From a virus (lineage: Duplodnaviria > Heunggongvirae > Uroviricota > Caudoviricetes), in the IMG/VR virus record IMGVR_UViG_3300026382_000007: a DNA stretch of 64,000 nucleotides; one strand, written 5' to 3'. Shown piece after piece: positions 48,977 through 49,458 of this stretch. Every line of letters starts with the position of its first letter. Position 1 is the stretch's first letter. Made by a program: the position numbers and the translations under genes. The notes below the pieces were generated by a model. The model was given only the letters and a program-made list of their open reading frames with translations, was not told where the DNA came from and did not search any database.

Positions 48977-49189
48977 ATGGCAAAAGTACAAAGATATCGT
49001 AAAGTTAAAATAAATGTTACTCAGGTTGGCGGGTTTGAAATCGGCACTGAGAACAAGTGGGAAGTTGAGTTGATTTTTATTAAGTCAATGAAGCTTCCAC
49101 AAATGAACATAACGGTTGATGGTGGTCTTGAATCAGAGGCTATATATGTCGGTCATCATTGGGTTGATGAATTACTTAAGGAAAGATAA
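48977..49189 (+). CDS. hypothetical small protein
   Basis: 70 aa; preceded by promoter variant. Confidence 0.35.
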   Translation: MAKVQRYRKVKINVTQVGGFEIGTENKWEVELIFIKSMKLPQMNITVDGGLESEAIYVGHHWVDELLKER

Positions 49190-49458
49190 TGAAAAAGGTT
49201 TTATTTCTGTTTGCATTAGTGGCAGCACTTTATGCAGGCTCAACTGACAAATGTCTAGGTTGTCACGGGACACACTTTGAAAAAAGAGCTCTGGGACAGT
49301 CAGGGGTAGTTGCTGATATGAACACAACAGCAATCAAATATGCACTAAATGGGTACCAAAATGGTACATACGGTGGAAAAATGAAAGGGTTGATGGCTGC
49401 GCAAGTCAAAGATACCAATGTTTCTGAGATTGTAACTGAAATAGTAAATTCTTTTTAA
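49189..49458 (+). CDS. periplasmic mono-haem c-type cytochrome (cytochrome c553-like)
   Basis: signal peptide MKKVLFLFALVAALYA, haem motif CLGCH, downstream GTYGGKMKGLMAAQV resembling Campylobacter/Helicobacter cyt c553 (..GSYGGEKKAVM / GMGGLMKGQV). Confidence 0.65.
   Translation: MKKVLFLFALVAALYAGSTDKCLGCHGTHFEKRALGQSGVVADMNTTAIKYALNGYQNGTYGGKMKGLMAAQVKDTNVSEIVTEIVNSF

Follow-up and report, generated by a model that had tools for sequence, protein, structure and literature searches.

A c553-type cytochrome gene in a large, novel myovirus with a likely Campylobacterota host

The stretch of viral DNA analyzed here (the window: 64,000 nucleotides, or 64 kb of the ~155-kb metagenomic contig of IMG/VR record IMGVR_UViG_3300026382_000007, Caudoviricetes) carries a gene for a small cytochrome at positions 49189-49458 on the + strand. 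At the level of sequence analysis, the encoded protein is securely a periplasm-targeted monohaem c553-type class I cytochrome, and the window belongs to a large, novel myovirus whose likely host, judged from the relatives of two of its genes, is an environmental member of the Campylobacterota (Sulfurovum, Sulfurimonas, or Arcobacteraceae type). The cytochrome gene is under selection yet accessory, and it lies in a variable part of the phage genome. With a probability of roughly 60%, its product would act as a phage-specified periplasmic soluble electron carrier that sustains the respiratory flux of the host during infection.

The gene begins with ATG, ends with a TAA stop codon (included in the coordinates), and specifies a precursor of 89 amino acids (aa); a Shine-Dalgarno sequence (AAGGA, 49178-49182, + strand) can be read from the sequence 6 nucleotides (nt) 5' of the start codon. 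A Sec-type signal peptide comprising approximately residues 1-17 (MKKVLFLFALVAALYAG; 49189-49239, + strand) is indicated by hydropathy, with MKK followed by a hydrophobic core (mean Kyte-Doolittle value of 3.15 over residues 4-14) and then YAG/S, and with no lipobox; cleavage probably occurs after A16 or G17. The CLGCH haem-attachment motif (residues 22-26; 49252-49266, + strand) supplies C22 and C25 for the thioether links and H26 as the proximal axial ligand, while the predicted distal axial ligand is Met69 (codon at 49393-49395, + strand) within residues 59-73 (GTYGGKMKGLMAAQV), the start of the protein and the Met-ligand region together reading MKKVLFLFALVAALYAGSTDKCLGCHG...GTYGGKMKGLMAAQV... 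Alignment to the solved Desulfovibrio vulgaris c553 identifies M69, and not M65, as the axial methionine. All aligned homologues (21-member alignment) have the same N-terminal architecture, and among window open reading frames (ORFs) of at least 70 aa the cytochrome is the sole carrier of a CxxCH motif. In a crude hydropathy screen, the only other signal-peptide-like ORFs were two small ones with lipoprotein-like N-termini (...VFGGC at 26101-26442 and ...LLTGC at 59155-59424, both on the + strand). The initial annotation, which was made from the letters of the window, had given the same ORF coordinates, length, Sec signal, CLGCH site, and downstream Met-ligand region, and the ligand can now be assigned to M69.

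The family assignment draws on both sequence and predicted fold. A phmmer search against the chains of the PDB returned four D. vulgaris c553 chains (E = 6.4e-8 to 2.1e-7), and the same program, applied exhaustively to 1.84 billion representative proteins, returned 813 matches at E <= 1e-3 (186 at E <= 1e-10), statistics that place the similarity to cytochromes far beyond chance. In the alignment with D. vulgaris c553, C22, C25, and H26 fall on C10, C13, and H14, and M69 falls on the axial ligand Met57, so the CXXCH-Met architecture is present at the known ligand positions. Across family alignments of 21 and 50 members, C22, C25, H26, and G27 are invariant and A34, S38, G55, Y56, Y61, G62, K66, and M69 are nearly so, M69 being kept in at least 90% of the members of these alignments, in 98% of 46 homologues outside the phage lineage described below, and in all four copies within it. 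With the profile built from the 50 family members, the match to c553 reaches E = 4.1e-21 and spans residues 4-78 of the 79-residue chain. An AlphaFold2 model built on the 50-sequence alignment (predicted local distance difference test score (pLDDT) of 89.7) supersedes an earlier 8-sequence model (pLDDT of 69.5), and a Foldseek search with it gave the c553 structures 1c53 and 1dvh as top PDB matches (template-modeling scores of 0.70/0.78; root-mean-square deviations of 2.2-2.9 A), the best 21 PDB structure matches all being class I cytochromes c. Public sources name the homologues 'cytochrome c553'. The earlier identification of a signal-peptide monohaem c553-like class I cytochrome in a phage is therefore upheld by sequence, fold, genomic context, and homologue taxonomy.

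Cellular relatives were located in a scan of one genome per GTDB species, which yielded 571 relatives whose best 80 loci were examined. All 80 belong to the Campylobacterota (Sulfurovum, Sulfurimonas, Arcobacteraceae, Nitratifractor, and unclassified Campylobacterales) at 44-60% identity, and neither Campylobacter nor Helicobacter occurs among the best 80 of the 571 loci. The small periplasmic monohaem c553 of C. jejuni and H. pylori is a donor to the cbb3 oxidase, and the initial annotation had likened the phage protein closely to it; that likeness holds for the phylum and the kind of protein, whereas the nearest kin lie in environmental genera. The proposal of a Campylobacterota host made at the same time is supported by the 80 of 80 best loci and, independently, by a phage flagellin gene, for which the only organism-named entries among the top 120 matches are 'Campylobacterota bacterium' and Sulfurimonas crateris. 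The best solved relatives of this flagellin include 6x80, the C. jejuni FlaA filament.

The flagellin gene (45013-45837, - strand) is the only opposite-strand gene in its neighborhood and encodes a compact protein of 274 aa (Flagellin_N, E = 5e-40; Flagellin_C, E = 7e-15). Numerous homologues of the same length exist at 60-77% identity, and the two examined (L093 and L095, both at 6001-6825; 72% identical) likewise each lie alone on the opposite strand amid phage-like genes (for RNA ligase, NAD kinase, and a CCA-adding enzyme around one; for DNA ligase, ribonucleotide reductase (RNR), and dCMP deaminase around the other). Matches in deposited phage records are few and mostly short unannotated fragments, and this phage-borne flagellin family looks unusual.

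Clustering the neighbors of 78 cellular c553 genes revealed three recurrent settings. At 26 of the 78 loci, the c553 domain forms the N-terminus of a 310-360-aa protein with a C-terminal NapB domain, encoded in an operon for the periplasmic nitrate reductase (nap) that also holds NapG/H/F-type ferredoxins and a NapL-like beta-propeller; nine loci have a stand-alone copy beside ccoS (FixS) and a ccoI-type P-type ATPase gene, which are cbb3 oxidase maturation genes; and nine loci contain tandem paralogues. The phage protein, at 89 aa, stands alone, neither fused to NapB nor located in a nap operon, and attempts to place it in the fused or the stand-alone class failed (mean identities of 51% and 48%, respectively). 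The c553-NapB fusion, found for example in Sulfurovum and related metagenome-assembled genomes (L005, L006, L014, L017, L018, L020, L025, and L037; match at ~4001 in each), is a three-haem protein encoded in napGH-napB-napF-napL operons and may mark the missing link between QcrC and NapB in the Campylobacterota.

The surroundings of the gene are those of a phage. Nearly all window genes lie on one strand, and they include virion genes (tail sheath, baseplate hub and wedge, tail fibres, and a VrlC-like tail protein of 1152 aa) as well as genes for DNA ligase, class I RNR, dCMP deaminase, Amidase_2, and GroEL; the cytochrome is flanked by structural and replication genes upstream and by the Amidase_2 and GroEL genes downstream. 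Between 49943 and 58533 the window holds 26 transfer RNA (tRNA) genes in several clusters with small ORFs between them. No integrase family was matched among the 20 larger ORFs compared with PHROGs (in the 64 kb covered of ~155 kb); the lytic lifestyle named in the initial annotation is provisional. No PHROGs family matches the cytochrome. A DNA search of the 10-kb neighborhood at near-identity against 50,697 deposited phages produced tRNA-sized matches only and no relative. No nap, other reductase, or ferredoxin domains occur among the neighbors of the cytochrome, and no haem-maturation gene is encoded in the visible part of the phage. The identical cytochrome gene with the same flanks is present on 6 contigs from separate assemblies.

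Diverged copies of the cytochrome were found in three relatives from other samples (L003, L090, and L004, at 75%, 66%, and 58% identity), each at the corresponding site 5' of a conserved 43-aa ORF and the tRNA array. L090 represents the same kind of phage, its core enzymes being 72-83% identical to those of the window, and has 21 tRNA genes within the fetched DNA. The four lineage copies share 58-75% identity among themselves and at most 61% with any cellular protein, keep every strongly conserved family position, and differ mostly by lost lysines. The ratio of nonsynonymous to synonymous substitution rates (dN/dS) is 0.19 against L003 and ~0.2 against L004 (dN 0.286, dS 1.44), and the guanine-plus-cytosine (GC) content is 0.39 in the gene and 0.37 in the window. 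A further relative, L095, has an RNR large subunit that is 83% identical, the same gene order, and a tRNA array (14 tRNA genes within the fetched DNA), and lacks the cytochrome at the syntenic place, which rules out the cytochrome as a core gene of the phage group.

Similar genes occur in other large phages. A scan of IMG/VR with two conserved peptide motifs returned five loci, so the count of carrier phages is a lower bound. Two of these loci belong to genuine large phages that are unrelated to that of the window, namely L086, which encodes T4-type topoisomerase II subunits, and L087, a 194-kb contig encoding a gp32-type single-stranded DNA-binding protein and an RNase H-type exonuclease; each has a signal-peptide c553 homologue. 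These homologues are closer to cellular proteins (59-70% identity) than to the lineage of the window (42-52%), indicating independent captures. L085 is ambiguous, in that a viral origin is not demonstrable, and L089 is a false positive, its match being internal to a 1378-aa protein encoded by a contig with a GC content of 0.54. In tblastn searches of the 50,697 deposited phage genomes, neither the window cytochrome (E <= 10) nor the L086 homologue (E <= 1) had a match; the BFVD viral structure library contained no similar fold, and a literature search found no report of a phage c553.

The gene also appears to be embedded in the transcriptional organization of the phage, where it takes second place in a two-gene unit preceded by a promoter-like element. 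The first gene of the unit is a 70-aa ORF (48977-49189, + strand) that has neither an assigned function nor a signal peptide and whose TAA stop codon shares one base with the cytochrome ATG (TAATG). Directly 5' of the unit lies a copy (48916-48979, + strand; core TTTAATCTTACTTATAGTATAAT at 48928-48950) of a 64-nt repeat, D1, whose three copies precede a 71-aa ORF, the 70-aa ORF/cytochrome unit, and the following unit. The last of these (49459-49522, + strand; core 49471-49493) opens the unit of the 43-aa ORF and tRNA array and thereby bounds the cytochrome unit; no intrinsic terminator is predicted on the + strand between the cytochrome gene and this repeat. The core motif, T[TC]TAAG[CT]T-N7-TTTA[CG]GGTATAAT, occurs 15 times in the window versus 0.19 expected, with sites extending from 25183 to 61746, all in the non-structural part and all but one on the + strand, including four closely spaced copies at 53478, 53576, 53692, and 53876. 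From this distribution we infer that the core is a putative phage promoter.

The 70-aa ORF has homologues with the same overlap in L003 (81% identity) and in L004 (weak similarity, with MAKV..NVTQV.GF..GLESEA in common). It has no Pfam match, and a word-indexed protein search for it returned the identical protein and the L003 copy only. L090 lacks this ORF yet keeps the cytochrome, which rules out an obligatory pair.

Downstream of the unit, the stretch at ~49590-49880 (the 43-aa ORF at 49606-49737 plus ~140 nt on its 3' side) is near-identical in the window, L003, and L090, unlike the adjacent cytochrome gene, which has 78% DNA identity between the window and L003. The conservation extends beyond the stop codon of the 43-aa ORF. 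An invariant stem pairs the ribosome-binding site and start codon of this ORF with a downstream segment, and a hairpin just 3' of the stop codon (~49752-49777) has six compensatory pairs in the diverged L004 and no Rfam match; an Rfam search of 48500-50000 returned nothing meaningful. On the thin evidence of these four sequences, the stretch may represent a regulatory leader or a small RNA ahead of the tRNA array.

Taken as an auxiliary metabolic gene (AMG), the cytochrome lies inside a phage genome between phage genes, is homologous to a host metabolic gene, belongs to neither the virion nor the replication machinery, and is under purifying selection with its functional residues intact in all four lineage copies. 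That the gene is functional in the phage is indicated by this selection, by the phage-like GC content, by the ribosome-binding site and promoter-like motif, and by synteny in L003, L004, and L090. The earlier suggestion that the phage manipulates host electron transport draws support from the selection, from the persistence of the gene in relatives, and from its repeated capture, and stands as a reasonable inference rather than a demonstrated effect.

In the favored role of a soluble carrier, the cytochrome and the upstream 70-aa ORF would be transcribed from the class of phage promoter that precedes many non-structural genes, and the precursor would be exported by the host Sec system. Haem would be attached at C22/C25 by the host cytochrome c synthase, which in the Campylobacterota is System II (CcsBA), and the mature protein of ~72 aa, with His26 and Met69 as ligands, would diffuse in the periplasm as a one-electron shuttle. 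By topping up or replacing the soluble c553 pool of the host, it could keep the cbb3 oxidase, the periplasmic nitrate reductase, or both supplied with electrons from the quinol:cytochrome c reductase (Qcr) and perhaps also from sulfur-oxidizing enzymes, so that proton-motive force and the supply of adenosine triphosphate (ATP) would be sustained while host gene expression is taken over. In the Campylobacterota, Qcr supplies the oxidase by way of soluble cytochromes c, and it also supplies Nap (PMC6195509).

Several observations weigh against this account. The gene is dispensable for the phage group, as L095 does without it. The loss of lysines in the phage lineage (e.g., at position 39) could mean an altered partner instead of plain replacement of the host carrier. 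The redox partner is not indicated by class membership, given the nearly equal mean identities to NapB-fused and stand-alone homologues, and the most closely related stand-alone genes of cells have housekeeping genes as neighbors. The host assignment depends on two host-like genes only, the cytochrome and the flagellin. Lastly, the protein scores below the Pfam gathering thresholds (15.2 versus 27 bits for Cytochrome_CBB3, PF13442; 14.6 versus 21.3 bits for Cytochrom_C, PF00034), and all its NCBIfam matches are far under the cut-offs; the low Pfam scores are attributable to divergence of a very short domain, since the corresponding domain of the cellular homologue L020 clears PF13442 with 40.5 bits.

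The loss of lysines bears on the possibility that the phage rewires or hijacks host electron transport, either through altered docking surfaces that divert electrons to one acceptor (e.g., nitrate via NapAB) or through a competitive sink that shifts the host redox state. Position 39 is K in 72% of cellular sequences and G, K, L, and L in the phage copies, and locally the phage protein is most similar to the NapB-fused c553 domain encoded in nap operons of Sulfurovum (identity of up to 58% over 73 residues). Moreover, the route from QcrC to NapB is still unsettled in this phylum (PMC6195509). On the other hand, the best full-length-score cellular matches are stand-alone proteins, the net charge of the lineage copies (0 to +4) is within the cellular range (4.5 +/- 3.5), and there is no nap or other reductase gene near the phage gene, so that rewiring seems unlikely. 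A re-tuned carrier that combines altered lysines with the co-translated 70-aa partner present in most members, and that would steer Qcr-derived electrons (e.g., as an oxygen/nitrate switch in a sulfur oxidizer of the Campylobacterota), is a speculative variant of about equally low probability. Were it correct, the independent captures in at least three phage lineages would mark the soluble cytochrome c pool as a general point at which viruses of sulfidic and vent-type habitats control chemolithotrophic energy metabolism.

Another use for a small periplasmic cytochrome is suggested by C. jejuni CccA, which has an additional role in cytochrome biogenesis (PMC6195509). A phage protein resembling CccA (Cj1153) in this respect would keep apocytochrome thiols and the maturation pathway working, so that the c-type cytochromes of the host stay functional. 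Its small size, single haem site, predicted periplasmic location, and origin in the pool of the same phylum suit this idea, but the closest relatives of the phage protein are not from Campylobacter, the cellular contexts point to the oxidase and Nap, and a short lytic cycle may depend more on the supply of carrier than on new biogenesis. Help with biogenesis is thus a doubtful explanation, on a par with rewiring.

The location of the gene in a variable, 'moron-like' region together with the flagellin gene and a GGDEF protein gene, and its translational coupling to the 70-aa ORF in three of the four lineage members, would also suit a non-respiratory periplasmic role, exerted alone or with the 70-aa protein (e.g., haem or iron sequestration, protection from peroxide or nitrosative stress, a signal to a host sensor, or superinfection exclusion). 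Such a role is less probable still, since all the residues that define an electron-transferring c553 are kept under purifying selection, L090 retains the cytochrome without the 70-aa partner, and the sequence suggests no catalytic or sensor domain. Finally, an artefact or decaying passenger (a mis-assembled host gene or a recent functionless capture) might be suspected from the metagenomic assembly and from the absence of the gene in L095 and in all deposited phage genomes searched, but is very improbable in view of the recurrence of the gene and its flanks on 6 separately assembled contigs, its synteny in three diverged relatives from other samples, its phage-like GC content, its dN/dS of ~0.2, its intact motifs, and the phage promoter motif upstream.

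The window also encodes several other proteins of note. The GroEL-type chaperonin (60137-61717, + strand) matches phrog_5725 (E = 5e-147), and the same strand encodes a Band_7/SPFH protein (39218-40090) and a 527-aa protein (33619-35202) with weak C-terminal similarity to nicotinamide-nucleotide adenylyltransferase. Three consecutive ORFs of 558, 523, and 421 aa (11972-16498, + strand) match phrog_25468, a family of unknown function, and contain up to six repeated stretches, with a local rise in GC content to 0.445 at 14-16 kb; the three products are probably paralogues that serve as tail fibres or in receptor binding. A 175-aa protein (58568-59095, + strand) aligns with no more than the N-terminal half of the GGDEF diguanylate-cyclase domain (positions 2-90 of the 161 in the profile), and a 32%-identical homologue is encoded by L086, the unrelated cytochrome-carrying phage. 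Full-length GGDEF genes adjoin the cellular c553 gene in 11 Arcobacter-type loci, an association that may be coincidence.

Viral auxiliary metabolism is best known from the photosynthesis genes of cyanophages and the dsr/sox genes of sulfur phages, and the cytochrome described here would carry it over to respiration in the Campylobacterota, at the step of soluble cytochrome c. Members of this phylum of the Sulfurovum/Sulfurimonas type have a major part in sulfur oxidation and nitrate reduction where habitats are sulfidic, vent-associated, or at redox interfaces. The presence of such a gene in at least three unrelated large phages suggests that this step limits phage production. Because the gene requires both Sec export and haem ligation by the host, the phage must leave both systems running. 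The gene is also a useful marker for linking uncultured Campylobacterota phages to hosts, and it offers a small, easily expressed target for studies of whether the products of viral AMGs differ in redox tuning from their host counterparts.

Among known proteins, the nearest kin of the phage cytochrome are the c553 proteins and c553-NapB fusions of environmental Campylobacterota, which share its signal-peptide architecture and conserved positions; the cellular genes are chromosomal, whereas the phage copy lies among phage genes beside the 70-aa ORF and forms its own clade. The structurally characterized D. vulgaris c553 (1c53, 1dvh, 2dvh) is likewise a small monohaem class I cytochrome (~75-80 mature residues) with the same layout of CxxCH, 'GY..G.YGG', and Met ligand at 28-33% identity, but it is chromosomally encoded in another phylum, and the phage protein is shorter before the CxxCH. 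The Desulfovibrio partners, formate dehydrogenase and hydrogenase (compare the hydrogenase complex 1e08), are not expected for the phage protein. C. jejuni CccA (Cj1153) and H. pylori c553 (HP1227) resemble it as small periplasmic monohaem cytochromes that donate to a cbb3 oxidase (PMC6195509). Their genera are absent from the best 80 loci.

Among viruses, cyanophages carry plastocyanin (petE) and ferredoxin (petF), which are copies of host photosynthetic electron carriers. These provide a purely functional analogy, namely a phage-borne small soluble carrier belonging to an energy chain of the host (PMC5082946), and the phage c553 would be the respiratory counterpart of plastocyanin; they are copper and iron-sulfur photosynthetic proteins with unrelated folds and no covalent haem attachment. 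Phage c-type cytochromes reported earlier are the SoxD of sulfur phages (PMC8190135) and the NapC/NirT multihaem cytochrome of amoC-phages (bioRxiv 10.64898/2026.06.18.733297), with the CydAB oxidase of a vent virus (PMC12043954) as a looser parallel. The SoxD and NapC/NirT genes are, like the gene in the window, c-type cytochrome AMGs of uncultured large phages that depend on export and haem ligation by the host. They belong to other families and to phages of other host phyla, and their products are a subunit of the SoxCD enzyme and a membrane-anchored quinol dehydrogenase, respectively, unlike the free, diffusible monohaem shuttle predicted here. The c553 of these presumed Campylobacterota phages would be a further instance of a known viral strategy.

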